From the NCBI GenBank assembly GCA_019245575.1, contig JAFARE010000013.1:10580-74579 (forward strand): DNA of 64,000 nucleotides. The letters run 5' to 3'. Below, in pieces: positions 25,870 to 42,506 of this stretch. The stretch's first letter is position 1. Every line of letters begins with the position of its first letter. The notes under the pieces were generated by a model. It was not told the DNA's origin, searched no databases, and was given only the letters and a program-made list of their open reading frames with translations. A program made the position numbers and the translations under genes. This DNA is from Candidatus Dormiibacterota bacterium (GTDB lineage: Bacteria; Chloroflexota; Dormibacteria; Aeolococcales; Aeolococcaceae).

Positions 25870-28527
25870 GTGCGGCGTTCTCGCCTTGCCACGTGTTTTG
25901 TGCTGCTTGCAGCCCTCGCGCTCGCCGCTCTCACCGCGCCCCGTCACGGTGCGGCCACCCCCGCCACGGCGGGGCACACGGCTCAGAAGCTGGAGGAGGA
26001 GGCCCCGCCGGGCGACGAGTTCCTCAACCAGCGCCTGGTCAACGTCGGCGGCGCGCTCACCGACAACGCATTCGCCCTGGCTGGCCAGCAGGCGCTCAGC
26101 GTTCGCGCTCAGACGGCCTCTGCCGATCCCGCCGACGCCACCGCGCAGTGGAGCTTCGACGGCCCGACCAACATCGACAACCCCCACGGCCAGGGCGGCG
26201 CCAACGACGGGGGCGGGCGGGTGGCGGACCTCGCCGTCGACCCGCTGCACGCCGGGGTGGTGTACGCGGCGAGCGCCGGCGGTGGTGTGTGGAAGAGCAC
26301 CGACGCGGGCAAGACGTTCGCCTCGGTGTGGCCGGTCTCGCTCCCGGAGGCGATGGGCGCCATCACCGTCGGTCCTGACGGCACCGTGTGGGCGGGCACC
26401 GGTGAGACCAACCCCGGCGGGGGCAGCATCACCTTCTTCGGCGACGGCATCTATCGCTCCACGGACGGCGGCAGCACGTGGTCGAACGTCGGGCTGACCG
26501 ACTCGTGGACCATCGCGCGCATCGTCGTCAACCCGGCGAACGCGAACCAGGTGTGGGTCGCGGTCTCGGGCAACCTGTTCCTCCCCGGCCACCAGCGCGG
26601 CGTCTACGTCACCAACAACGGGCTGACGAGCAACCCGAGCAGCGTGGTGTGGACACAGTCACTGGCGCCCCCGCTGGGCTCCAACGGCACCGGCACGCTC
26701 AGCGCCACCGGCGCCAGCGACCTGGCGATGAGCCAGCAGCACCCGAATGTGCTCTACGCGGCGATGTGGGACCACATCCGCACTCCCGATCACCGCACGT
26801 ACACGGGCAGCGGCTCCGGCGTGTGGAAGACGACGGACGGCGGCACGACATGGACGGAGCTGACGTCGGCGGCGAATGCGGTGACATCGGGACTGCTCGC
26901 CGACAACACCGCCAACGGGCGCATCGGCGTCGCGGTGGCGCCGTCCGATGACCACTACGTCTACGTCAACTACGCCAACGACCCGCTCGGCGCCTTCGAG
27001 GCGTGGTTCACGTCCACCGACGGTGGCGCGACGTTCTCCAAGCCGGCGCAGGCGCAGCTCGACCTGCGCATCCCGGTGACCAACTCGTCGTACGTGTACG
27101 GCTGGTGGTTCGCCAAAACGTTCGTCGATCCGAAGACTCCGACGAATGTCTGGGTGACGGGGCTGTGCCTGTGGTCGTCCACCGACGGCGGCAGCACCTT
27201 CCCAAACGACGACTGCAGCGTGCACGCGGACCAGCACAGCATGGAGTGGGACCCCAACGTCGCCAACCAGGTGTATCTGGGTGACGACGGCGGGTTCTTC
27301 ACGTCGACGCACAACGGCACGCCAGGAACCTTCGTGCCCGCGACGTACGAGCCGTGGCCGCAGTTCGACGGCCTCGACGTCAGCGAGCAGGATCCCACGC
27401 ACATCGCCGGCGGCCTGCAGGACAACGGGTCGCAGCGCAGCTGGGACAGCAACGGCAACGCCGTGGCGATGAACGGCTGGAACTCGATGTACGGCGGTGA
27501 CGGGCAGCAGAACCTGATCGACCCGCAGAACAACAAGATCGTCTACTCCTGCCTGCAGTACGGCAACTGCCAGGTGTCAACCGACGGGGGCAACACCGGC
27601 ACGGAGTTCGACAACGGACCCACCAGCCTCAACCCCGATCCCAACGGCACGGTGTCGGCGCGCAACGCGTACTTCACGCCGATGGCGTTCGACCCGAGCA
27701 ACCCCGACACCGTGTACTGGTCGGGCGACATCGTCAACGTGTCCAACAACGATGGCGCGAACTGGCGCGTCATCAGCCCCGACCTCGGCGGCCCCATTCC
27801 GGGCACCGAGGCGGACCCGCTGTACGCGGGTCACTACGGCGTGGTGACGACGATCTCGGTGTCCAAGAGCAACCACGACATCGTGTGGGTGGGCACCGAC
27901 TCGGGCAACGTGTGGATGACGAGCGACGCGACGTCGAATCCCACGATGCCCACGTGGACCCAGATCAGCGGGCTCGGCGTCACGAACTCCCCGCTGCCGA
28001 CGCGCTGGGTGTCGAAGGTGTATGTCGACCCGGACAACCCGCAGATCGTGTACGTCGGGTTCAGCGGCTACCGCGCGGGTGACAACAACCCCTACATCGA
28101 GCGCACCGACGACGGCGGGGCCACGTGGACTGACCTGAGCTCGGGCCTGCCCGAGGCGACGGTGAACGACATCACCCTGGCCGGCGGCCGCCTCTGGGTG
28201 GCGACTGACACCGGCATCTACGCGAGCGACGCCGCCCAGGATCCCACCATGTCGCCGTCCATCACCTGGCGGGAGATCGGCGACAACCTCCCGGCGATCG
28301 CGGTGACCGCGCTGCGCTACGTGCAGAGCAACACGACGCTGTACATCTCGACGTTCGGACGCGGTGTGTGGTCGCTGGCGCTGGCGCCGGCGACGTCGAC
28401 GCCGGAGGCCGGCGCCGCATTGTTGCTGCCGCTGGGCGGAGCACTCGCCGCGGGAGGCGCCGTGCTGCTGCGCCGCCGTCGAGCGCGACGGCGCGCTGCA
28501 ATGCAGCAGGCGAAGGGAGGGCAATGA
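25870..28527 (+). CDS. Secreted Asp-box (BNR) repeat beta-propeller protein (VPS10/GH74-like) with C-terminal anchor
   Basis: Signal peptide; many S/T-x-D-G-G-x-T-W/F repeats; HADQH; GGLQDNG; STFGRGVW; GGAGG RBS. Confidence 0.88.
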   Translation: MRRSRLATCFVLLAALALAALTAPRHGAATPATAGHTAQKLEEEAPPGDEFLNQRLVNVGGALTDNAFALAGQQALSVRAQTASADPADATAQWSFDGPTNIDNPHGQGGANDGGGRVADLAVDPLHAGVVYAASAGGGVWKSTDAGKTFASVWPVSLPEAMGAITVGPDGTVWAGTGETNPGGGSITFFGDGIYRSTDGGSTWSNVGLTDSWTIARIVVNPANANQVWVAVSGNLFLPGHQRGVYVTNNGLTSNPSSVVWTQSLAPPLGSNGTGTLSATGASDLAMSQQHPNVLYAAMWDHIRTPDHRTYTGSGSGVWKTTDGGTTWTELTSAANAVTSGLLADNTANGRIGVAVAPSDDHYVYVNYANDPLGAFEAWFTSTDGGATFSKPAQAQLDLRIPVTNSSYVYGWWFAKTFVDPKTPTNVWVTGLCLWSSTDGGSTFPNDDCSVHADQHSMEWDPNVANQVYLGDDGGFFTSTHNGTPGTFVPATYEPWPQFDGLDVSEQDPTHIAGGLQDNGSQRSWDSNGNAVAMNGWNSMYGGDGQQNLIDPQNNKIVYSCLQYGNCQVSTDGGNTGTEFDNGPTSLNPDPNGTVSARNAYFTPMAFDPSNPDTVYWSGDIVNVSNNDGANWRVISPDLGGPIPGTEADPLYAGHYGVVTTISVSKSNHDIVWVGTDSGNVWMTSDATSNPTMPTWTQISGLGVTNSPLPTRWVSKVYVDPDNPQIVYVGFSGYRAGDNNPYIERTDDGGATWTDLSSGLPEATVNDITLAGGRLWVATDTGIYASDAAQDPTMSPSITWREIGDNLPAIAVTALRYVQSNTTLYISTFGRGVWSLALAPATSTPEAGAALLLPLGGALAAGGAVLLRRRRARRRAAMQQAKGGQ

Positions 28528-30767
28528 CGATGCTCAGGAAGGGAATGGCGCGGTCGCTGCTGCTCGCCGCGGTCGTCGGTGCGAGCGCGTTCGCTCCGGC
28601 CGTCGTGTCGAGTACGCATGCCACTGCAGACGCCACCAAGACGTCGTGCACGCCGGATCCGGCGCTCGACAGCCTCGACCCCTGCCGCGCCGACACCGGC
28701 CAGGCCACCGACGACCAGGCCCACTACAGCTACACCACGGCCATCAAGTCGCACGTGCAGGTGCCGGTGCCGCAGACCATCGTCGACGCCATCAACCCGC
28801 CGCAGGGCGGCGCGCCCAACGTCGACACGATATGGATCGACTACATCCGTCCCAATGTCCCGGCGGGCGTGACCGTGCCGACGATCATGGATGCGTCGCC
28901 GTACTACAACACGCTCGGGCGCGGCTACGACGGCATCCTCAAGTCGCTCACCGATCCGAACGCGCCGGAACCCGTGAGCGTCGAGCGCTGTGCCGGCGCC
29001 AATCCGTGCACGAACTACGCGGACTTCCCGGAGTGGGAGGCGCACTACTTCGTGCCGCGCGGCTACGCGGTGGCGCTGATGGACCTGCGCGGCACCCGCA
29101 ACAGCAGCGGCTGTGAGGTGTACGGCGACAAGCAGGAGGCGCTCGACGCCGTGGCCGCCGTGGACTGGATCGCCGGACAGACCTGGTCCAACCAGCGCGT
29201 GGGCATGATCGGCGGCTCGTACGACGGCACGATGGCGAACGGCGCGGCCGCGCTGTACCCGCTGGCCGGGAAGTATCACAACGTCGACGGCCACGGCATG
29301 GACGCGCTGGCTGCGGTGGTGCCCATCCGCGCCATCGACCGCTGGTACGACTACCAGTTCTTCAACGGAGTCGAGGCCAACGGACAGGAGCTCGACCCGG
29401 AGCTGTTCACCGCGGAGCTGCCGGCGGAGGACTGGCCCACGAACGGGCCCACCACGGGCGATCCGACCTATGCGCAAGGGCTGGCGCAGCGAAAGTCGTG
29501 TCCCGCGTTCGCGCAGGTGGCCACCGACGAGGGCTACACGGCGCCGTACCAGGACACGCAGGACGCGGCCACCACCAGCTTCTGGAACAACCGCGACTAC
29601 CTGCAGTACACGCCCACGTGGAAGGCGGCAACGCTCTTCATCCACGGGCTCTTCGACAACAACGTCAAGACGATGAACTCCGGCCAGCTGTGGGATGCGC
29701 TCAACGCGCGCGCCACGCCGCCGCCCTTGCGATACCTCTGGTTCAACGGCGGCCATGCCGACCCCGACACACCCAGCGTGCAGGTGGAGAACCAGAACGG
29801 CCTGACCGCTGAGTACCTGATGCCGTACACGTGGATGCAGAAGTTCGAGCAGGAGGTGCACCAGTGGTTCCTGCAGTACCTCAAGGGCGTCGACGCCGGC
29901 GCACTGCAGGCGCCCAAGGTCGAGATCCAGCGCGACTACGACGACGCCGGCGACACATTGCAGCAGGGGCACTGGGACGCCTACTCGCAGTGGCCGGCGC
30001 CGGGAAGCGACACGGTGCTCCACTTCGACGCATCCAACAACACGGCATCCGCGAATCCCGCGGGCGCGGGCACCGTGCAGTGGGATGACGAGGCCACAGG
30101 CATGGCCGCACCTGCGAGCCAGTCGTTCGTCAGCGCGCCGTTCACCTCAGACACGCGCATCTCCGGCCAGTTCGAGTTCGACCTCAACATCTCCGCCGCC
30201 GGCGCCGACACCACAATCGCGGTGGAGGTGGATGACATCCCGCCGGGAGCGCTGACCGACACGACCTTCGCGACCGAGGACGTTTCCACCAACACGCATC
30301 CGTTCGCGTTCACCTACGGATACATCCGTGCCTTCTACCGCGCGTCGGTGCACCCGCGCGGCGCCTCGTATCCGACGGGCGGGTCATTCCTCACGCCGAA
30401 CACGCAGTACGCGATCAGCTTTCCGTCGACCTACACGGACTACGTGGTGCGGAGCGGCCACCGCCTGCGATTCACGTTCAGCAACGCATCGCCGTACAGC
30501 CTGCCCACGTATCAGGGCAATGTGGTGACGATGTACGCAGGGTTGAACGACGGCACCAGCCAGGTGCACATTCCCGTCGCCGCGACCGGACCGACCACCT
30601 CGACGCCCGAGTTCGGCGCCGGCGGCCCCACGGTCGCGGTGCTGGCCGGCGGCGTCATCCTCGTGGCAGCCGGCGCGCGCCGGCGCAGGTCATCGCGCCG
30701 CGTCCGGCGGGCGAGCTCCGGCGAGGCTCAGCCCCAGCCGAAGTTGTCCGAGAGCTCCGCAGAGTAG
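28524..30767 (+). CDS. Secreted CocE/NonD / Xaa-Pro dipeptidyl-peptidase (S15) family hydrolase with C-terminal anchor
   Basis: SPYY, FVPRGYAVALMDLRGT..S.GC, GGSYDG catalytic Ser, HGLFDNNVK, GGH; ATGA coupling to upstream gene. Confidence 0.88.
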   Translation: MTMLRKGMARSLLLAAVVGASAFAPAVVSSTHATADATKTSCTPDPALDSLDPCRADTGQATDDQAHYSYTTAIKSHVQVPVPQTIVDAINPPQGGAPNVDTIWIDYIRPNVPAGVTVPTIMDASPYYNTLGRGYDGILKSLTDPNAPEPVSVERCAGANPCTNYADFPEWEAHYFVPRGYAVALMDLRGTRNSSGCEVYGDKQEALDAVAAVDWIAGQTWSNQRVGMIGGSYDGTMANGAAALYPLAGKYHNVDGHGMDALAAVVPIRAIDRWYDYQFFNGVEANGQELDPELFTAELPAEDWPTNGPTTGDPTYAQGLAQRKSCPAFAQVATDEGYTAPYQDTQDAATTSFWNNRDYLQYTPTWKAATLFIHGLFDNNVKTMNSGQLWDALNARATPPPLRYLWFNGGHADPDTPSVQVENQNGLTAEYLMPYTWMQKFEQEVHQWFLQYLKGVDAGALQAPKVEIQRDYDDAGDTLQQGHWDAYSQWPAPGSDTVLHFDASNNTASANPAGAGTVQWDDEATGMAAPASQSFVSAPFTSDTRISGQFEFDLNISAAGADTTIAVEVDDIPPGALTDTTFATEDVSTNTHPFAFTYGYIRAFYRASVHPRGASYPTGGSFLTPNTQYAISFPSTYTDYVVRSGHRLRFTFSNASPYSLPTYQGNVVTMYAGLNDGTSQVHIPVAATGPTTSTPEFGAGGPTVAVLAGGVILVAAGARRRRSSRRVRRASSGEAQPQPKLSESSAE

Positions 30768-30874
30768 CCCCAGCCGAAGTTGTCCGCCGAGTAGCCCCAG
30801 CCGAAGTTGTCCGCCGAATCCCGCGAGTATCCCCAGCCGAAGTTATCGCACGGCTTCGTGGTGGTCCGGGTCAT
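30728..30874 (-). CDS. 48-aa peptide with four DNFGWG repeats (missing from ORF track)
   Basis: MTRTTTKPCDNFGWGYSRDSADNFGWGYSADNFGWGYSAELSDNFGWG*; RBS GGGAGGAG 7 nt before ATG; synonymous differences between copies. Confidence 0.8.
   Translation of the reverse strand: MTRTTTKPCDNFGWGYSRDSADNFGWGYSADNFGWGYSAELSDNFGWG
30731..30847. repeat. Four direct repeats of CCCAGCCGAAGTT(G/A)TC
   Basis: Unit spacings of 36, 27 and 36 nt, all multiples of 3. Confidence 0.92.
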
Positions 30875-30958
30875 GTCCTGTCTCCTCCCGCGGTCCCGTC
30901 CGCACCCCGGACGGCGACCCTCGGTGGCTGAAGCCTGCGGGTGGGACCTTTCCGGAAC

Positions 30959-31906
30959 CTAAAGCGGAGCTAAAACCGGTTCCGGGGAACGGGGCGCGGC
31001 TTCAGCCATCTCGTCGAGGCGCACCAGCGCGATGCCGGCAACCACCAAAACGCCACCGGCGAGCTGGACGGGGTTCAGCCGCTGCCCGAGCAGCAGCCAG
31101 GCGAAGCCGACCGCGGCCAGGACCTCACACAGGCCGAGGAAGGAGGCCAGCTTCGAGCCCAGCAGCCGCACCGCGGCGATGCCGCTGACGTAGGCGACGA
31201 CCGCCGCCACGAGCGACAGGCCGAGCACAGGCACCAGCCAGGACACCGGCCTGGCCAGCAGGATCACATCGACGAAGGCGGCGTGCAGCGGCAGCACGTG
31301 AACGGCGCCGGCGATCGCGAGCGTGACCGCGCCGACCACGAGCCCGCCCCACGCCATCACGAGCGGCGGCACGCCGTCGTCGGCGTGCGCGGCCAGGATG
31401 AAGTAGGCGGCCAGCCCCACGGCGGCGCCGAGCCCCCAGAGGACGCCGATGAAGTCGACGCGGTGCGCACCGGCCAGGTCGAGCACGAGCACCAGACCCG
31501 CGAGGGCCGCCGCTCCCGCGACGGCGGTGAGCAGCCTCGGCCGGCGGCCCTGCCGAATCCAGCCCCAGGCCACCACGAGCAGGATGCCCGAGTACTCGAG
31601 GAGGAGGGCGACGCCCACCGACAGGCGCGAGACTGCGTTGAAGTAGCAGAACTGCGCCGCGGCCACGGCCACCACGCCGTAGACCAGCAGCAGGCGCATC
31701 GACGCCCACGCGGGGCGCTGCCGCCGAAGCTGGACGAGCGCCGGCGTCGTCAGAACCAGCGCGGCGATGCCCACACGCGTGACGACCGCGGCGCCGGGGG
31801 TCCAGCCGGCGCTGATCAGGCTCGAGGCAAACGCGCCGGCCGTGCCGAAGGTGGTGCCGGAGAGGACACCCAGGGCCAGACCCGCGTTGCTCGGCGACCT
31901 GCGCAT
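30959..31906 (-). CDS. EamA/DMT family transporter
   Basis: About 10 TM helices; YFNAVSRLSVGVALLLEY; ASFLGLCEV. Confidence 0.9.
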   Translation of the reverse strand: MRRSPSNAGLALGVLSGTTFGTAGAFASSLISAGWTPGAAVVTRVGIAALVLTTPALVQLRRQRPAWASMRLLLVYGVVAVAAAQFCYFNAVSRLSVGVALLLEYSGILLVVAWGWIRQGRRPRLLTAVAGAAALAGLVLVLDLAGAHRVDFIGVLWGLGAAVGLAAYFILAAHADDGVPPLVMAWGGLVVGAVTLAIAGAVHVLPLHAAFVDVILLARPVSWLVPVLGLSLVAAVVAYVSGIAAVRLLGSKLASFLGLCEVLAAVGFAWLLLGQRLNPVQLAGGVLVVAGIALVRLDEMAEAAPRSPEPVLAPL

Positions 31907-33078: not shown

Positions 33079-35370
33079 CTATGCCGAGACGCGAAAGGTG
33101 GATTGGCGGGAGTCCGCGTGCTGCCCGGCGCGCAGCCGCTGCTCGATCATCCTCGCCGGCATCGGTCTCGCCAGCAGGAACCCCTGACCCAGGTCGCAGT
33201 CGAACGCGCGCAGCGAGGCGAGATCAGCGTCTGTCTCGATGCCCTCGGCAACGGTCTCGAGGTTGAGCATGCGCCCCATGCTGATGATGGCGCGCGCGAC
33301 CGCGGCGCGCTCCTCGCTGGTGGCGACGCCTGTCACGAACGAGCGATCCACCTTCAGGGCGTCGATGGGAAACCGCAGCACATGGCCGAGTGACGAGTAC
33401 CCGGTGCCGAAGTCATCCAGAGCCAGCCGCACACCCATGCGTTTCAACTCCTGCAGGCAGACATCGGCCGCCTCCGTGTCACGCAGCAGCGCCGTCTCCG
33501 TCACCTCGAGTGTGAGCAGGCTGGGGTCGAACCGCTCGTCGGCGAGAATCTCCTGCACCCGCGCCGCCAGGTCCGCGCGCGGCACCTGCCGCGCCGAGAG
33601 GTTGACGCTCACACCGAGCATGCACGCGGCGGGGAAGTCCGTCTGCCAGCGGTGCACCTGGCGCAGCGCTTCGCGCAGGATCCAGTAGCCGATCGGGACG
33701 ATGAGGCCCGTGTCCTCAGCCAGCGGGATGAAGTCCGACGGCGGCACCAGGCCGAGGGTCGGATGCTCCCACCGCACAAGCGCCTCCACCGAGTGCAGAT
33801 CGCCGGTGCGCAGGTCGACGAGTGGCTGGTAGTGGAGCACGAACTCGTTGCGCTCGAGGGCGCGTCGCAGCTCGCCTTCGAGCTGTAGCCGCTGCACCGC
33901 GGCCGAGTGCATTCCGGGTTCGAAATGAAAGCTGCTGCCGGAGCCGTCCATCTTGGCGCGGTACATCGCCAGGTCGGCGTCGCGAAGCATCGTGCCGGCA
34001 TCGGCCTGGCCGTGTGAGCTCACCGCGATGCCTATGCTGCCGCTGATGGACACCTCCGACCCGCTGAGCAGGAACGGAGGCCGCAGCGCCTCGAGAATGC
34101 GGTCGGCCACAGTCGCCGCGTCGACGGGCCCTGACGCCTCCTCGATCAGCACGGCGAACTCGTCGCCGCCCAGCCGCGCCGCGGTATCGGGCTCGCGCAG
34201 GCAGCCGCGCAGACGCTCACTGACATTGATGAGCAGCTGGTCGCCGGCAGCGTGGCCGAGGCTGTCGTTCACGTTCTTGAACCGGTCCAGGTCCAGGAAC
34301 AGCACGGCCACCTGGCCGTGATCGCGCCGCGCGCGCGCGAGCGCGTGGTCCAAGCGCTCAAAGAACAGCGCGCGGTTGGGCAGGCCGGTGAGCACGTCGT
34401 GAAACGCGAGATGCTGCATCTCGTCCATCGTTCGGGCGTCCGTCAGGGCAAGGCTGGCGTGCTCGGCGAACGCCGCTAGGATTTCCTGGTCGTTCTCGTC
34501 GAAGTGGCGTCCGAGCTGCGTCGACGCGACGGAGATGCTCCCGATGACGCGCCCGGCCTCACGCACCGGGGCCGCCATCGCGGCGACAAAGCCGCGCGCG
34601 GCGAGCTGGGGCAGCACGCTGGTGGCCTTCGCGTAGTCGTACATGACGACCAGGCGATCCTCCGCGATCGCGTGTCCGCTGGCGCCGACCCCCACTGGCG
34701 CCCGGGCGACCTCCGCCGCCGTTTCAGGCGGAAGGCCGGCCGACGAGACCAATGACGAGGTGTGCTCGTCGTCCTGGTCCACCAGGCGCACGGCAGAAGC
34801 CTCGGTGTCGAGCAGCTCGCGCGCTCCTGCGGTGATCGCATCGAGGGTGTCGCTGAGCGGCGCGCGGCGCGTGATGGCGCGCTGGATCGCCGAGAGGCGC
34901 TCCAGCAGCAGCTGGCGCTCCTGCAGCGTGGCTCGCAGCGAACGCTCACGATCCAGTGCGCTGAACACATCGAGTGTCAGGCTCAAGCTGCGCGCCATGC
35001 CGCGCATGAGCGTCGCCTCCTCGCGGCTGAAGGGCTGATCGCCGAGGCGCGCGACGACCAGATGTCCATCGCCGTCGGTTTCAAACGGCGCGCTGGTGAG
35101 ACGGCAGCGCCCCACTCCCTTGACGTCGATCTCCTGCGCGCGCGCGGCGACGGCGGCGATCAGGTGGCGCACGTCGACCCGGCCGCCGGGGAAGCCCACC
35201 GATGCTGTGACATGGCCGCCCTCGATGACGGCGCCCAGCTCCGCCTCGAGGGTCTCCGCCGCCCAAACGACACCGCGGTCCGCTGCGGCTCCGCGTTCTC
35301 CCGCGGACGTGATGGCGCCGAGGAACTCAGCAAGCTGCGCGCTGATCCAACCCTCGGCGATCCGTGTCAC
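33079..35370 (-). CDS. GAF-GGDEF-EAL diguanylate cyclase/phosphodiesterase
   Basis: HDVLTGLPNR, REPD I-site, GGDEF, EAL, DDFGTGYSSL. Confidence 0.93.
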   Translation of the reverse strand: MTRIAEGWISAQLAEFLGAITSAGERGAAADRGVVWAAETLEAELGAVIEGGHVTASVGFPGGRVDVRHLIAAVAARAQEIDVKGVGRCRLTSAPFETDGDGHLVVARLGDQPFSREEATLMRGMARSLSLTLDVFSALDRERSLRATLQERQLLLERLSAIQRAITRRAPLSDTLDAITAGARELLDTEASAVRLVDQDDEHTSSLVSSAGLPPETAAEVARAPVGVGASGHAIAEDRLVVMYDYAKATSVLPQLAARGFVAAMAAPVREAGRVIGSISVASTQLGRHFDENDQEILAAFAEHASLALTDARTMDEMQHLAFHDVLTGLPNRALFFERLDHALARARRDHGQVAVLFLDLDRFKNVNDSLGHAAGDQLLINVSERLRGCLREPDTAARLGGDEFAVLIEEASGPVDAATVADRILEALRPPFLLSGSEVSISGSIGIAVSSHGQADAGTMLRDADLAMYRAKMDGSGSSFHFEPGMHSAAVQRLQLEGELRRALERNEFVLHYQPLVDLRTGDLHSVEALVRWEHPTLGLVPPSDFIPLAEDTGLIVPIGYWILREALRQVHRWQTDFPAACMLGVSVNLSARQVPRADLAARVQEILADERFDPSLLTLEVTETALLRDTEAADVCLQELKRMGVRLALDDFGTGYSSLGHVLRFPIDALKVDRSFVTGVATSEERAAVARAIISMGRMLNLETVAEGIETDADLASLRAFDCDLGQGFLLARPMPARMIEQRLRAGQHADSRQSTFRVSA

Positions 35371-36539
35371 GTCAGTGCCAGCACCACCAGCGTCTGGTTG
35401 TGGAATCCGCTGATGCCGTGGGTGCGCGCGATCTCGCCGTATGTGTAGAAGCCCGCGACGGGTGCGCCGACGGCGTAGTCGCTGATGCGCTGCACCTCGC
35501 GAGCGATGCCCTCGTCGCCCAGCACGCCGCGCCGGGCGATGCAGTCGAATGCGAGCAGTCCCAATGGCTTCTGGCCCTCGAGGGACTGCAGCGCGTCATC
35601 GCACGCGGCGTCGGTCGCGTTGAGGACGGAGTCGGCGTCGCCCTCCATGATCCAGACCAGGCCGCCGTGGGGCACGGCCGCGATGCAGCCCAGCGAGCGA
35701 TCGCTGAAGTCCGCCTCGGCGATGAACCGGACCTCCTCGCCGCTGCGCCGGCTCAAGCCGAGCGGGTGGGTCATCGCGTAGCGGGTGAATGCCGCCGCGT
35801 CGCCGCGCACACCCTCGGGAGCGCCCAGGCGCTCGAGGTACACGTCGAGCGCGGGCTGGTCATCCAGCGTGTGCACGCGGTTTCCGGTGCTGCCGGTCAC
35901 GAGCATCGGCTCGCCGACCTTGCGCCATCCGTGCTGCACACCGATGCCGAAGGGCGCATCCGATGCGATGGCCGCGGCGACGACGGAATCCTGGAGCACG
36001 TCGCCGTTGTGAAACTGGTACGTGCGGCGCATCTTCAGGTCGTCACCGGCGCAGCCGCCCACCAGCGGTATCGCAGCGCCGGCGACGCTGTACGCGCCGC
36101 GCACGATCTCCTGCTGGTCGCCCGCCAGACCATCACTCAACAGCAGCAACACACGGTTCGGCTTGCCGTCGACCTCGGCGACGCACGCGCCCGCCTCGGC
36201 GCCGGCGTCGCGCAGCCGCTCGGAGGCGTTGGTCGACGCAGCCGTGGCGCAGGCGAACCCGCTGCCGCCGAGCGCGGCGACGACGACTCCCGACTCACCC
36301 GGTCCCGTGGTCGCGATCTCGCCCGCGGTCGAGCACCCCACCAGCGGAGCGTCGCCCGTGCTGCGGCGCACGCCGGCGAGCAGCTCGTGCAGGTCGTGAG
36401 CCTCGGACGCGAAGACGATGGCGAGCTTGGGATCGCCGCCCCTCACCGCGGCCCGCGCGGCGTCCTCGCCCGCGGCGAACGACTCGTTGTCGCGACTGGA
36501 ACCCACGCCGAACCACCGGTTCTGCTCACTCCGCTCCAA
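35367..36539 (-). CDS. FIST N/C domain sensor (NosP-like)
   Basis: GCSTAGEI, VGGCAGD, HGW, FDCIARR, GFYTYGEI, FHNQT; TTG start with AAGGAG RBS; overlaps downstream start. Confidence 0.9.
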   Translation of the reverse strand: MERSEQNRWFGVGSSRDNESFAAGEDAARAAVRGGDPKLAIVFASEAHDLHELLAGVRRSTGDAPLVGCSTAGEIATTGPGESGVVVAALGGSGFACATAASTNASERLRDAGAEAGACVAEVDGKPNRVLLLLSDGLAGDQQEIVRGAYSVAGAAIPLVGGCAGDDLKMRRTYQFHNGDVLQDSVVAAAIASDAPFGIGVQHGWRKVGEPMLVTGSTGNRVHTLDDQPALDVYLERLGAPEGVRGDAAAFTRYAMTHPLGLSRRSGEEVRFIAEADFSDRSLGCIAAVPHGGLVWIMEGDADSVLNATDAACDDALQSLEGQKPLGLLAFDCIARRGVLGDEGIAREVQRISDYAVGAPVAGFYTYGEIARTHGISGFHNQTLVVLALT

Positions 36540-36825
36540 CTTCGAATCTCCTTGCGAGCGCGCGGTCTCGCTGGTCGCGTCCGGACGTCTACACACAGCA
36601 GTGGAACAGGGCGGCCGTGCCCCCGCTGCTGACCTGATCAAATCGGCCGCGGCCCGTGGGGCGGCGGGGGCAAGGGCTTCGTAGCGCGATCGTTGTCGGC
36701 CCGCGACAGGGGGCCCTCCCGATGCGCGAATCCGCAAGAATTCCGCCCGGACGCGCGTTTACGGGAAGGGCACGACATCTCGTGCCCCCCGGGAAGGCCG
36801 GCGACACCAACGAGAGGAGACCGAC

Positions 36826-38703: not shown

Positions 38704-39159
38704 CTAGGGGATGTCGGGCAGGCGCGCCACCTGCAGCCAGAAGCGGTCGATCGAGCGGACCACCTCGGTGAACTCACTGAAGTCAACCGGCTTCACGACG
38801 TAGCAGTTGGCCCGCAGCTCGTAGGCGCGCTGCACGTCAGCGGGGCGCGCCGACGTGCTGAGCACGATCACGGGAATGCTGCTGAGCGCGCGGCTGTCCT
38901 TGATCTCAGCGAGCACCTCCATGCCGTCTTTGCGGGGCAGGTTCACGTCGAGCAGGACGAGCGCAGGCCGCGGAGCGCCGTCGAAGGGCGGCCGGCGGTG
39001 CAGGAACGACACCGCGGCGTCACCGTCGCCCACCACGTACAGGCGGTGGGGGACCTGTGCATGGCGCAGCGCGGTCTCGGTCAGCCGGACGTCGGCCCGG
39101 TTGTCCTCGACGACCAGGATGTTGACGGAAGGCGGCTGAGCGCGCGGCCCCGCATTCAT
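38704..39159 (-). CDS. Single-domain response regulator (Rcp1-like)
   Basis: VEDN, LLDVNLP, IPVIVLSTS, ANCYVVKP, FW. Confidence 0.9.
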   Translation of the reverse strand: MNAGPRAQPPSVNILVVEDNRADVRLTETALRHAQVPHRLYVVGDGDAAVSFLHRRPPFDGAPRPALVLLDVNLPRKDGMEVLAEIKDSRALSSIPVIVLSTSARPADVQRAYELRANCYVVKPVDFSEFTEVVRSIDRFWLQVARLPDIP

Positions 39160-39962
39160 CCGTCCGCCGGCGCCTGTGCAGGTAGCGTGAAATGAAACGC
39201 GGCGCCGCCGAGCGGTGAATCCTCGACCCAGATGCGCCCGCCGTGGTTGTCGATGATGCGCTTGCACGTGGCGAGACCGATGCCGCTGCCGGGATAACTC
39301 TCGCGGTCGTTGAGGCGCTGGAACATCTCGAAGATGCGCTCCCGATGCCGCGGCTCGACGCCGATGCCGTTGTCGGACACTACGAAATGCCAGACATCTC
39401 CCTCGTCGCGCGCTGCCCGCACCATGATGTGGGGGGACCCGTCGGGCGGACGGAACTTGAGCGCATTGGCGAACAGGTTCTGCATGAGCTGGCTGAACTG
39501 CGTTCGGTCGACCGAGACGGTCGGCATCCGCGCGGGCACGTCGACGATCGCATACGTCTCGAGGATCTGCGCAGCAAGCCCGTCGAGCACCTGGTTGATG
39601 ACGGTGCCGCTCTGCACCCGGCGCCGATCCGCACTGTGTACGCCGACGCGCGAGTAGTCCAGGAGGTCGTTGATGAGCGTCTTCATGCGGCGGGTTCCGT
39701 CGACGATGAAGGCGATGTACTCGTCGGCCTCCTCGTCGAGCCTGCCGCTGTACTCCTGCGCCAGCAGCTGGGCGAATCCGGAGATGGAGCGCAACGGCTC
39801 CGACAGGTCGTGCGACACCGCGTAAGCGAAGTGGCGCAGCTCGGCGTTGTACCGGGCCAGCTCGGCGGCGCGGATGGTCAGCTCGTGGCGCAGGCGGGCG
39901 ATGTCGGCGCGGTCGGAGGGGTTGCCCGGGCCGCGGCCAGATACGTTGGCCGCGGTGTTCAC
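39156..39962 (-). CDS. Histidine kinase (HisKA + HATPase) without evident sensor domain
   Basis: FAYAVSHDLSEPLR, NALKF, DNGIG, GSGIGLA; start uncertain (39962 or 40022). Confidence 0.85.
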   Translation of the reverse strand: MNTAANVSGRGPGNPSDRADIARLRHELTIRAAELARYNAELRHFAYAVSHDLSEPLRSISGFAQLLAQEYSGRLDEEADEYIAFIVDGTRRMKTLINDLLDYSRVGVHSADRRRVQSGTVINQVLDGLAAQILETYAIVDVPARMPTVSVDRTQFSQLMQNLFANALKFRPPDGSPHIMVRAARDEGDVWHFVVSDNGIGVEPRHRERIFEMFQRLNDRESYPGSGIGLATCKRIIDNHGGRIWVEDSPLGGAAFHFTLPAQAPADG

Positions 39963-40015
39963 GCGGCCGCGCAGGACCCTGAACGCCGCGGGCGGCACAG
40001 CCGGCGCGAGGGCGG

Positions 40016-41848
40016 CTACCACCGTGGATCTCGCGCCATCAGACGCCGCATCTCCGAAGCAGGCAGCGCCGCGGAGAAGAGATGCCCCTGGGCCATGTCG
40101 CATCCCAGCTCGCGCAACGCCGCCAGCTGCTCGGCGGTCTCGACGCCCTCGGCCACCACCGTCAGGCCCAGCGCCCCGCCGATCGTGAGCAGCGCGCGGA
40201 CGATCGCCGTGCCGCCCTGGTCGCTGCCGACATCCGACAGCAGCGCGCGGTCGATCTTCAGGATGTCGACCGGAAGACGGCGCACGACGTCGAGCGTCGC
40301 GTGGCGTGTGCCGAAGTTGTCGACCGCGAGCTTCGCGCCCAGCTCCTTGAGCGCTTCAAGGGTCCGCGTCAGGGCCTTGGGACACTCCACCAGCGACGTC
40401 TCGGTGATCTCGAGACACAGCACGGGCGAGTCCGGTCCCGGCCCGAGGTCGCCGAGCGCGGCAGCCACAGTGTCGACCACCTTGGGGTCCATGAGCTCGC
40501 GGGTGGACATGTTCACCGCGACCGTCAGGTTGTTGCAGACAGAGCCGGCGAGCCATTCCCGCGCCTGACGCAGCGCGGAGCGCACCGTCCATGCGCCGAA
40601 GCCCTCGATGAGTCCCGAGTGCTCGGCCTCGGCGAGGAAGTCACCCGGCAGCAGGACGCCGCGGCGCGGATGGCGCCAGCGCAGCAGGGCCTCAGCTCCA
40701 CAGATCGTGCCACGGCTGACATCAACGATCGGCTGATACACAGCCTGCAGCTCGCCGCGCTGCAGCGCATGGTGCAGGTCGGTCTGCGTCTCATGACGCG
40801 TGACCGCCGCCGCGTGCATGGGCGCCTCGAACTGGACCGCGCGTCCGCGGCCGGCCTGCTTGGCCCGGTACAGGGCGATGTCGGCGTCGCGCAACAGGCT
40901 CTCGGGGTCGTCGTCAGGTGAGGTGGCGAAGGTGAAGCCGATGCTGGCGTCGATGTACGCCTTGTGCTCGCCGATGACCATCGGGGCCCGCAGCATCTTC
41001 AGCATCCGGCCCGTGATCGCCTCCAGCTCCTCGCGGCCGTTGATCCGCTCGCACAGAACCGCGAACTCGTCGCCGCCGATGCGCGCCACCGTGTCCGCCG
41101 GGCGCAGCACCGCTCGCATGCGCTCGGCGACGATGGCCAGCAGCTCGTCGCCGGCGCTGTGGCCGAGGCTGTCGTTGACGATCTTGAAGCGGTCGAGGTC
41201 GACCATCATCACCGCCGCCAGGCTGTGTCCGCGCGACGCCCGCGGCACCGGGGTCTCCGAGCCGGGACGGAGGCGCGTCCTCATCCTGGCGAGCGCGCTG
41301 CGCACGCGGTCCTCGAACAGCATGCGGTTGGGAAGCCCGGTGAGCGCGTCGTGGTACGCCAGGTGGTGGAGCTGCCGGTCGACGCGCATGCGCTCGATGG
41401 CGTAGCGCAGCGAGCGGCGCAGCGTGCCGGCGTTGACGTCACCCTTGGTGAGGTAGTCCTGCGCGCCCTCGCGCAGCGCCTGCAGCCCGACACTCTCGTC
41501 GTCGCGCCCGGTGAGGACGATGATGGGAGCATCAGGCGCGGCCGTGCGGATCTGCACGAGCCCGTCCAGACCCTGCGCGTCCGGGAGCCCGAGGTCGAGG
41601 ATCACGCACGCCGTGTCGCGGGCCGCCAGCGCGGTGACCGCGGCGCCGGCGCTGCCCACGCTGACCAGCTCGAGCCGGTCCTTGCCGGGCTCGTCACGCA
41701 ACATCCGGCGCACCAGCGCGGCATCGCTCGGGCTGTCCTCCACCACGAGCACGCGCTTGGGCGCGCCATCAGGCGCTGCCCTGACGGGATATGCCGCCGT
41801 GCGGCTGCCCGCGATCTCCACCGCGGGTTCGGCCGCTTGCATCCGCAT
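40016..41848 (-). CDS. REC-GGDEF-EAL protein
   Basis: VEDS, LDLGLPD, GAQDYLTK; GGDEF; EAL; loop 6 reads DNFGTRHA; start approximate. Confidence 0.9.
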   Translation of the reverse strand: MRMQAAEPAVEIAGSRTAAYPVRAAPDGAPKRVLVVEDSPSDAALVRRMLRDEPGKDRLELVSVGSAGAAVTALAARDTACVILDLGLPDAQGLDGLVQIRTAAPDAPIIVLTGRDDESVGLQALREGAQDYLTKGDVNAGTLRRSLRYAIERMRVDRQLHHLAYHDALTGLPNRMLFEDRVRSALARMRTRLRPGSETPVPRASRGHSLAAVMMVDLDRFKIVNDSLGHSAGDELLAIVAERMRAVLRPADTVARIGGDEFAVLCERINGREELEAITGRMLKMLRAPMVIGEHKAYIDASIGFTFATSPDDDPESLLRDADIALYRAKQAGRGRAVQFEAPMHAAAVTRHETQTDLHHALQRGELQAVYQPIVDVSRGTICGAEALLRWRHPRRGVLLPGDFLAEAEHSGLIEGFGAWTVRSALRQAREWLAGSVCNNLTVAVNMSTRELMDPKVVDTVAAALGDLGPGPDSPVLCLEITETSLVECPKALTRTLEALKELGAKLAVDNFGTRHATLDVVRRLPVDILKIDRALLSDVGSDQGGTAIVRALLTIGGALGLTVVAEGVETAEQLAALRELGCDMAQGHLFSAALPASEMRRLMARDPRW

Positions 41849-42008
41849 CACCGCGATCATCCGGCGGCTCCGATGACGGCCGGCCCACGCGAACGCCACC
41901 GGATCGTCACAAATGTACGACGGATGGTGACGCGAAAGAGCGGTTTGACGCTCCTGCGTGGCGCCGCTATGATCGCCTGAAGGGGCAAAGGGTTTGGGGG
42001 TCGGGTAC

Positions 42009-42506
42009 ATGGGATTGGCGCATATCTCCCGCATCGCTGTGGCGCTCACCGCCGCAGCCGGGTCGTTCGCCGCTGCTGGGGCCGCCGGCGCCGGAGCGCA
42101 GGGCGCAAGCTGCCCGGTGGGGGACGAGGCCGTGACCAACGTCCACTACGCGATCTTCGATCCCAACAACACCAGCCACAACGCGACGCGCCTGCGCGGC
42201 AACGTGGACAGCGGCGACCAGGTGAATGTGCTGTTCGACGTGCCGGCGCTGCCGGCGGGGTGCTCGGACGTGACACTGACCATCGCCACGTACACGTCGC
42301 CTGTGTCGCCGCGGCATATGAACAAGCTCACGCTGTTCTCGCAGCAGTCGCAGAGCTTCATCGCCGGCGGCGGCTACGAGATGTCGGCGACGATCGCCCC
42401 CCACACGTCCGCGGCGACGCGCCATTTCCAGATCGACTTTGCGACGGGACCGGTGCTCACGCCTCCTGACTACGACTCCAACCTGATCGACTCCGCGCAG
42501 CACTGA
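42009..42506 (+). CDS. Secreted hypothetical protein
   Basis: Signal peptide; two Cys; coding-like codon bias; HFQIDFATG. Confidence 0.7.
   Translation: MGLAHISRIAVALTAAAGSFAAAGAAGAGAQGASCPVGDEAVTNVHYAIFDPNNTSHNATRLRGNVDSGDQVNVLFDVPALPAGCSDVTLTIATYTSPVSPRHMNKLTLFSQQSQSFIAGGGYEMSATIAPHTSAATRHFQIDFATGPVLTPPDYDSNLIDSAQH

Follow-up and report, generated by a model that had tools for sequence, protein, structure and literature searches.

A window of 64,000 nucleotides from a Candidatus Dormiibacterota genome (by the window we mean the whole stretch of DNA analyzed) holds on its minus strand a small open reading frame (ORF) with four copies of the hexapeptide DNFGWG. Judged by DNA identity, this four-core ORF is a four-fold tandem copy of the last six codons and the stop of a 10-codon mini-ORF on contig C4 of the same genome. 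The four DNFGWG copies are confirmed and are not a product of chance. The main new facts are the origin of the array from a conserved mini-ORF and the module to which that mini-ORF belongs, what would be a new combination of a Trp-containing mini-ORF, a structured leader RNA without an Rfam family, an MFS exporter, and a polytopic kinase, occurring in a phylum-level lineage known only from metagenomes. As to function, we favor the reading that the four-core ORF is a young translated multi-copy peptide gene whose product would act in trans and would perhaps be exported, and we give this a probability of roughly one in three. The ORF and its parts are as follows:

30728..30874, minus strand: the four-DNFGWG ORF, 48 codons including the stop (translation; third-position G+C, GC3, of 0.90; metagenome contigs X1 and X2)
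30882..30889, minus strand: Shine-Dalgarno-like GGGAGGAG, 7 nt 5' of the ATG (sequence)
30830..30847, minus strand: core 1, GAT AAC TTC GGC TGG GGA (sequence)
30794..30811, minus strand: core 2 (sequence)
30767..30784, minus strand: core 3 (sequence)
30731..30748, minus strand: core 4, then TGA at 30730-30728 (sequence)
30710..30727, minus strand: flank past the stop, still inside the DNA tandem repeat and aligning with the YSAELS spacer (repeat alignment)

Retranslation of 30728-30874 on the minus strand gives MTRTTTKPC-DNFGWG-YSRDSA-DNFGWG-YSA-DNFGWG-YSAELS-DNFGWG-stop, as an earlier note on this DNA had read it, and the ribosome-binding site that the note placed 7 nt before the ATG is found as GGGAGGAG at 30889-30882; this ATG is the earliest start codon in its open frame. 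The synonymous codon differences and whole-codon linkers to which the note drew attention are likewise there. Core 1 differs from the other cores by GAT for GAC and GGA for GGC, both silent, and the Ser codon after core 3 is TCT, elsewhere TCG, again silent, which makes all three differences within the core and the following YS silent; the units measure 36, 27, and 36 nt, every one a multiple of three, with cores spaced by 12, 9, and 12 residues. The G+C content at codon positions 1, 2, and 3 is 0.43, 0.59, and 0.90 in a window of 69% G+C, and the third-position excess, found solely in the frame of the ORF, matches the coding DNA of the same genome. The Shine-Dalgarno sequence is strong and ideally spaced; a GGAGG at positions -16 to -5 precedes 655 of the 58,481 ATGs in the genome (1.1%). 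In the minimum-free-energy fold of the intergenic RNA, the Shine-Dalgarno sequence is partly paired (z -1.67, not significant), and a promoter and terminator consensus scan found no sites.

The six-frame translation of the 2.6-Mb genome contains NFGWG five times, four times in the window ORF and once in a second small ORF; the looser DN..WG has seven matches, five of them the DNFGWG units. The second small ORF is the parent of the array:

G000:C4:17346-17378, plus strand: 10-codon mini-ORF MASWDNFGWG-stop, with its own Shine-Dalgarno sequence (six-frame DNFGWG search)

Its ATG is preceded at 8 nt by AGGAGG. The window ORF and the C4 mini-ORF share 24 of 25 nt, a stretch made up of the six codons with the stop and the three bases in front of them; no identity extends beyond it. 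The repeated unit corresponds to the variable C-terminal part of the parent, from a conserved Asp through the C-terminal Trp-Gly and the stop, and the four-core ORF has a new 9-residue N-terminus and a Shine-Dalgarno sequence of its own, without the MAxWG and the leader RNA of the parent. On one side of the C4 mini-ORF, at 230 nt, lies a divergent HisKA_3 histidine kinase of 492 aa, the first ~265 residues of which form a polytopic membrane domain with invariant residues; its sensor has MASE9/MASE1-like look-alikes in the Atlas, where the kinase's own cluster is labelled mostly Candidatus Dormiibacterota. On the other side, 195 nt downstream, is an MFS transporter (Pfam MFS_1/MFS_3) with TIGR00900, EntS, Tap, and Mef as its best NCBIfam matches, all below the cut-offs. 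Beyond the kinase follow a receiver-only regulator, a HAD hydrolase, and a PP2C phosphatase.

The C4 mini-ORF is one of a family of Shine-Dalgarno-led mini-ORFs, MA[STN]WGD-xxx-W(G)-stop. All 28 orthologous loci examined in the taxonomic family have such a mini-ORF, each time between the polytopic HisKA_3 kinase, which is always adjacent, and the MFS exporter. The distance from the mini-ORF stop to the start of the MFS match is 199-300 nt in the 27 of 28 loci for which it is on record, 295 nt at L090 being the largest of the first batch. The members in two genomes of the same genus read MASWGDSNSWG and MASWGDSATWG and those of other genera MANWGDVGGWG and MASWGDNYGWG; in genus g9, 22 additional loci out of 22 have variants like MATWGDLENWG and MASWGDGDNW, and farther members of the taxonomic family have looser Trp-rich mini-ORFs of 11-15 codons. 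The consensus is a constant N-terminal half, a conserved Asp, three variable residues, and a constant Trp. Across the 27 loci other than that of the window's own genome (G000), Ala2 is encoded by GCT (16), GCA (7), GCC (3), or GCG (1) and Asp6 by GAT (17) or GAC (10); Ser is AGC, AGT, TCC, or TCT, and the stops in all 28 loci are TAG (18), TGA (6), and TAA (4). The variation of Ala2, Asp6, Ser, and stop codons argues that selection on the mini-ORF family acts at the level of the peptide. The unpublished genome G004, which also has a member, supplies one of the 28 loci and one row of the RNA alignment described below, and the conclusions are independent of it.

A phylum-wide scan with the pattern MA[ST]W..WG-stop, which misses the W-stop forms of genus g9, matched 35 of 401 genomes, and the matches are real only in G000 and G004; most of the others end in TGG or are out of frame. 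Three in-frame candidates outside the family (L124, L135, and L109) were rejected as having no Shine-Dalgarno sequence, kinase, or MFS gene. In the sister family, an MFS orthologue was found in 0 of 16 at E <= 1e-30. Two observations concern the exporter itself. In genus g9 (L143-L165, e.g., G034:C1:844869-847548) the MFS gene behind the mini-ORF is duplicated in tandem, the paralogues showing 50-57% identity to the query and lying ~400 nt apart. The window's own genome has an MFS paralogue of 56% identity at G000:C36:139727-140896 (L102) with no MAxWGD mini-ORF upstream, where there is only an 8-codon Shine-Dalgarno-led ORF with one Trp.

Between the mini-ORF and the MFS gene lies the third element of the module:

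G000:C4:17379-17575 (L078 9981-10175): structured leader RNA between mini-ORF and MFS gene (hairpins; fold z -5.17)

This leader of 200-300 nt is also present at the orthologous loci L085-L088 and L143-L165. Folded from the last five codons of the mini-ORF to the MFS start codon, the G000 sequence reaches its z of -5.17 with none of 200 shuffles as good. Three hairpins recur across genera: a short one spanning the last codons and the stop, a second one that covaries, and a long third one. The leader also contains a GT[AG]ACGA motif and a G[TC]AACG-like loop, and in an alignment of seven sequences compensatory changes affect 6 of the 15 pairs predicted. Neither of the two loci matches an Rfam family, nor do the loci of three relatives (a mir-228 match with an E value of 0.56 was dismissed), and on this sequence evidence the parent leader is a candidate new cis-regulatory RNA. 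The setting of the parent opens a reading that the earlier note had not considered, that of a cis-acting leader peptide. The parent would then control the MFS gene at the ribosome, and the four-core ORF would be a functionless by-product, a 3' end copied accidentally and amplified by slippage; the copy would have landed at a rearrangement junction, and the 48-codon ORF may nonetheless be translated. The leader-like layout and the strongly structured RNA of the parent favor this account, and mef(E)L (PMC4335068) provides a precedent.

How the array arose can be read in part from its DNA. Tandem Repeats Finder (TRF) reports periods of 27 and 36 nt with 77-97% matches, and unit 4 plus the next 18 nt on its 3' side can be aligned to unit 3 and the YSAELS spacer, with 32 identical and 3 gapped of 39 columns and TGAGCC standing opposite TAC. 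The earlier statement that the stop falls right after the last core is thus correct for the reading frame, where TGA directly follows core 4, but not for the DNA, in which the repeat continues 18 nt past the stop. Because the repeat continues, the array must have been built by duplicating a piece consisting of core, stop, and flank, the interior stops then being lost in frame. That the array is an untranslated tandem DNA repeat, open in one frame by chance, is quite unlikely. The TRF periods and their match percentages, the repeat past the stop, and the two plus-strand frames that are also open across the array would suit such a repeat; the Shine-Dalgarno sequence with its ATG and a GC3 of 0.90 in the ORF frame only would not, nor would the identity with the coding end of a conserved Shine-Dalgarno-led mini-ORF, stop included.

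The organism occurs in rock, root, and rhizosphere metagenomes, and no RNA run is listed as containing the locus. Two metagenome contigs from different studies bridge the whole four-core ORF. That from run X1 (record 5; 471 nt) has 0 differences, and that from run X2 (record 10; 821 nt) has 3, all at third codon positions of the neighboring peptidase and none in the ORF. Both carry the ORF unchanged, and the array is therefore not an assembly artefact.

No homologous multi-core ORF emerged from any of the collections searched. A word-indexed protein search among lengths of 26-84 aa gave 34 candidates, none of which scored, and a search of relatives with the 48-aa protein had a best foreign E value of 0.029 and nothing convincing. 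The pattern W-G-x(3-8)-DNFGWG was found at 41 loci in 185,579 species genomes, each with one DNFGWG in an unrelated frame and about as many as expected by chance. Scanning metagenomes for paired NFGWG copies yielded 25 loci; these are low-GC long low-complexity proteins or DNA repeats read in several frames, none of them a short high-GC DNFGWG ORF; both the genome and the metagenome pattern scans may omit records of the window's own genome. The earlier note had looked to small DNFGWG ORFs in related genomes and to variation of copy number there. Neither was found: among the 161 genomes of the order covered by the search, G000 included, a degenerate DNFGWG pattern occurs in G000 alone (reversed-pattern controls 0), and in the relatives tested the own core is single in 3 of 3. 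The Atlas contains the 48-aa sequence verbatim and no usable look-alike, and literature searches returned no relevant paper for DNFGWG, DNIVWG, or MASWG and only unrelated papers for Dormibacterota with "small peptide". As far as sampled, the four-core ORF is species-specific.

A phmmer search against 1.84 billion representatives produced eight matches at E <= 0.001 (1.2e-6 to 9.4e-4) and none at 1e-10. Six of the eight, the best included, are DN[IV]VWG repeat regions, and the other two are different repeats; we take the matches to be likenesses at the level of the motif, with E values inflated by summing four short matches. These regions bear on the reading, in our view very improbable, that the ORF product folds as a small aromatic repeat protein and is related to the DN[IV]VWG or RTX-like repeats that S8 peptidases carry at their C-termini. 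In its favor, beyond the phmmer matches themselves, P0008 matches an RTX nonapeptide model at 3.3e-13, and its 9-residue register recurs in the middle unit, WGYSADNFG. The inflated E values count against it, as do the irregular spacings of 12, 9, and 12, in which no regular nonapeptide run of the RTX HemolysinCabind type is found, and the genome has no DN[IV]VWG array (five of its seven DN..WG matches being DNFGWG). The unit moreover derives from a 10-codon mini-ORF and not from a repeat protein, and Pfam gave no family for the ORF even at E <= 10, which leaves the earlier suggestion of a small aromatic repeat protein unsupported. A remnant of a larger repeat protein was dropped as a candidate, the open frame being 76 codons with the EamA gene upstream.

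Among the matched proteins, four of the six DN[IV]VWG[TS] arrays stand behind S8 peptidase domains, and Pfam names no repeat in them except the strict 9-residue form in P0008. The loci L053-L059, L066, L072, L074, L076, and L077 are metagenome contigs of 30-45% G+C with long low-complexity NFGWG proteins, in which Gly/Trp/Phe/Asn-rich stretches are followed by Ser/Arg/Asn-rich tails; these are unrelated to the four-core ORF.

The genes on either side of the four-core ORF are these:

30959..31906, minus strand: EamA/DMT-family transporter gene, upstream neighbor of the four-core ORF across an 84-nt gap (Pfam EamA, 5.2e-26)
28368..30767, plus strand: S15 / CocE-NonD peptidase gene, convergent, with a C-terminal membrane anchor (Pfam, NCBIfam)

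The EamA neighbor scores 84 bits against NCBIfam TIGR00950, under the 230-bit cut-off. The last 40 nt of the four-core ORF overlap the 3' end of the S15 peptidase ORF, the tail of which is ~22 aa longer than that of the same-genus orthologue. Both loci combine a peptide ORF with a same-strand transporter gene, EamA upstream in the window and MFS downstream at the parent. Farther away are an ABATE/CGNR regulator, GNAT, GGDEF-EAL proteins, FIST, a binding protein, two-component genes, an ABC-2 exporter, and CopC/CopD. Among them is a dense cluster of signaling genes (window 33079-35370, 35367-36737, and 38704-42139, all on the minus strand) comprising GAF-GGDEF-EAL, FIST, receiver, HisKA kinase, and REC-GGDEF-EAL members. 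The peptidase and the adjacent BNR/sortilin-like protein (25870-28527, plus strand) are both of secreted type and have similar C-termini, TSTPE[AF]GA followed by a hydrophobic stretch and RRRR, suggestive of a common signal for sorting or anchoring at the C-terminus; in the same-genus peptidase orthologue the anchor is present and the PE[AF]G motif absent.

The array could also be a re-used ribosome-sensing module. In the parent, D-xxx-W-G-stop would make ribosomes pause, through the nascent peptide or the Trp codon; in the window, placed where the EamA transcript ends and facing the peptidase gene, it would let such pauses determine how stable the EamA mRNA is or how much read-through runs antisense to the peptidase. 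We consider this unlikely. The module with its stop does stand in both loci, each time beside a same-strand exporter gene, the codons of the four-core ORF are rich in Trp, Phe, and Tyr, and the mef(E) leader peptide also affects mRNA stability (PMC4335068). Yet no minus-strand gene lies downstream of the four-core ORF, where the peptidase is convergent, and the RNA 3' of the stop is not unusually structured (z +0.51). A Trp-codon attenuator for a gene 3' of the ORF was dropped for the same lack of any such gene. The stops of the mini-ORF family vary among TAG, TGA, and TAA, which disfavors release-factor-specific arrest, a single pause at the stop needs no four copies, and we know of no precedent for an arrest ORF in a 3' location.

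The multi-core layout had led the earlier note to a signaling or ribosomally synthesized and post-translationally modified peptide (RiPP) precursor. A meaning at the level of the peptide is likely, and the absence of a RiPP maturase, which the note reported for the window, is borne out: Pfam scans covering 18.7-42 kb of the window found no radical S-adenosylmethionine, YcaO, P450, ATP-grasp, LanM, or prenyltransferase family, and scans of ~10 kb around the parent C4 locus found no RiPP maturase family either. A multi-core RiPP precursor with modifying enzymes encoded elsewhere in the genome is, in our view, decidedly unlikely. The identical repeated cores, the short variable spacers, and the stop right after the last core fit a RiPP, and Trp-containing cores are common as RiPP substrates. 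Against these stand, besides the scans, the conserved neighbors of the mini-ORF, limited across all 28 loci to a kinase and an MFS gene, the lack of homologous precursors, and an N-terminal part of 9 aa, which is too short for the usual RiPP recognition leader.

The synteny of the region returns us to the by-product of a cis-acting leader peptide, which we hold to be the main rival account, nearly as probable as the reading that we favor. G002, of the same genus, keeps the EamA orthologue (68% identity) with another gene 34 nt after it, and in G001, likewise of the same genus, the peptidase orthologue (72%) is retained and stops ~22 aa sooner, the next gene being on the plus strand. Synteny is lost on the EamA side with G002 and on the peptidase side with G001, and the four-core ORF, which lies exactly where it breaks, is therefore placed at a rearrangement junction. 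An accidental copy would agree with this position, with the missing MAxWG and leader RNA, with a DNA repeat that extends beyond the stop, and with the lack of an orthologue and of extra copies in the three relatives tested. It agrees less well with the start of the ORF: a strong Shine-Dalgarno sequence and ATG before an accidental array are unlikely at a background of 1.1%, unless inherited from a lost gene start, and a comparison of the DNA of 30640-30990 with five relatives gave chance GC-rich matches only, none of the five showing such a gene start. Three interior stops also had to be lost in frame, all the differences are silent, and the array is stable in two independent assemblies.

In the reading that we favor, the four-core ORF would be translated from its own Shine-Dalgarno sequence and ATG, and the product would supply several copies of a short acidic-aromatic peptide acting in trans. 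Most likely it would be cut into DNFGWG-containing pieces that would leave the cell through the adjacent EamA carrier or the parental MFS carrier and be sensed by the membrane-embedded kinase encoded at the parent locus; with four cores, more would be made of a peptide that the 10-codon gene yields in a single copy. In favor of this reading are the coding signals of the ORF (its Shine-Dalgarno sequence, GC3, whole-codon units, and silent differences), the hexapeptide and stop shared with an independent mini-ORF, the peptide-level conservation of the mini-ORF family, the same-strand transporter gene at both loci, the polytopic sensor kinase at the parent locus, and the identity of the ORF in contigs of two studies. 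The part of this reading that includes export and sensing by the kinase is doubtful. Equally doubtful, taken as a whole, is the fuller picture in which an uncultured soil or rock bacterium would signal with unmodified D-xxx-W-G peptides of 5-6 residues from a signal gene of 10-11 codons, the shortest pheromone gene known, with the MFS carrier exporting and a MASE-like membrane kinase reading the peptide, and with the four-core ORF as a newly born, alpha-factor-like polyprecursor beside a second exporter and without a maturase. By analogy, a fixed MAxWG with a variable D-xxx-W(G) after it is arranged like a leader and its mature peptide, of which the window ORF would repeat the second part only. 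The conservation of the parent peptide fits a nascent-chain sensor and a free peptide equally. The four-core ORF tips the balance a little toward the free peptide, since only the peptide-coding end was copied, with a Shine-Dalgarno sequence, three in-frame junctions, and a second exporter beside it. The RNA 3' of the ORF is unstructured and the parent leader was not copied, so any function would not be the cis function of the parent.

A number of points weigh against a trans-acting peptide. The parent has the setting of an efflux-gene leader peptide that acts in cis, and MAxWG, the most conserved part of the parent, is absent from the repeat. The continuation of the DNA repeat beyond the stop means that slippage alone explains the array. 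The three silent differences are all G/C-to-A/T changes at third positions, and because of this the "synonymous only" argument is weakened: by a hand estimate, such a triple would be wholly silent with a chance of ~0.1. The earlier preference for selection on the peptide over a DNA repeat is still more likely right, with DNFGWG ending a separate 10-codon ORF that belongs to a conserved mini-ORF family, and it is its silent-only argument that is weaker than it looks. The four-core ORF appears young and unique; neither same-genus genome (G001 or G002) has it at the matching position, the own core is single in each of the three relatives tested, and conservation cannot be demonstrated because the 48-aa ORF has no orthologue. 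No signal peptide, processing protease, or recognition sequence is evident for the ORF, the response regulator beside the parent kinase is receiver-only, and a 10-codon pheromone precursor would, to our knowledge, be shorter than any other.

Whatever its function, the array would offer a dated example of gene birth, in which a 10-codon regulatory or signaling ORF donated a copy of its coding end; this copy was multiplied to four units, freed of its interior stops in frame, and has a ribosome-binding site of its own. An active product would bridge leader peptides and secreted multi-core peptides, classes usually kept apart, and an inert one would make a clean case of tandem slippage yielding a well-formed orphan ORF that fools coding criteria. 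If the signaling reading is true, the ORF would be a bacterial multi-core signal precursor without a maturase, caught soon after its origin from a mini-gene.

Set beside known systems, the ORF has partial likenesses to several. The DN[IV]VWG regions of P0002, P0004-P0006, P0008, and P0009 share with it a D-N-hydrophobic-x-W-G pattern repeated every 9-13 residues, but they form long arrays within proteins of 190-570 aa, none of them in this genome, and the likeness is limited to the motif. Multi-core precursors with short-spaced cores include yeast alpha-factor, cyanobactins, and microviridins. Four identical DNFGWG units with short spacers in one translation product resemble these, whereas the four-core ORF differs from them in having no signal or leader, no shared flanking recognition sequences, no homologues, and no maturase or protease gene nearby.

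Gram-positive peptide pheromone modules are represented by ComX-ComP-ComA, AgrD-AgrC, and SHP-Rgg, ComP being a polytopic sensor kinase of HisKA_3 type, and in SHPs the variable mature part begins at a conserved acidic residue. The parent locus is similar in placing a small peptide gene beside a polytopic HisKA_3 kinase and an exporter, and the variable part of the parent peptide also starts at a conserved acidic residue. It is different in that no gene of ComQ, AgrB, or C39-ABC type is present, the only carriers nearby being MFS and EamA, so that export would be by MFS or DMT carriers; the regulator is receiver-only, the precursor has 10-11 aa, and the four-core ORF is on another contig than the kinase.

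In the mef(E)/mel attenuator, an 8-aa peptide, mef(E)L, and a 327-nt leader with four stem-loops precede an MFS efflux gene (PMC4335068). The parent has the same arrangement of a Shine-Dalgarno-led ORF (8-11 codons), a stem-loop leader of a few hundred nucleotides, and an MFS gene, and its MFS protein has a weak, sub-threshold NCBIfam similarity to Mef, Tap, and EntS. Two features of a leader peptide or attenuator, a same-strand gene downstream and structured RNA, are both found at the parent and neither at the four-core ORF, which has no downstream gene and no leader RNA. The peptides have no sequence likeness (MTASMRLR vs. MAxWGDxxxW), the parent mini-ORF always has a divergent sensor kinase, and a tandem multi-copy derivative of the leader peptide is not described in the abstract of the mef(E)L paper (PMC4335068).

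A last comparison is with peTrpL of Sinorhizobium, a trp leader peptide of 14 aa with an activity in trans (PMC7968998). It differs in working inside the cell with a small RNA and an antibiotic and in having no multi-copy version. It is alike in being a Trp-containing attenuator leader peptide with a second role as a free peptide, linked to antibiotic and efflux responses (PMC7968998).

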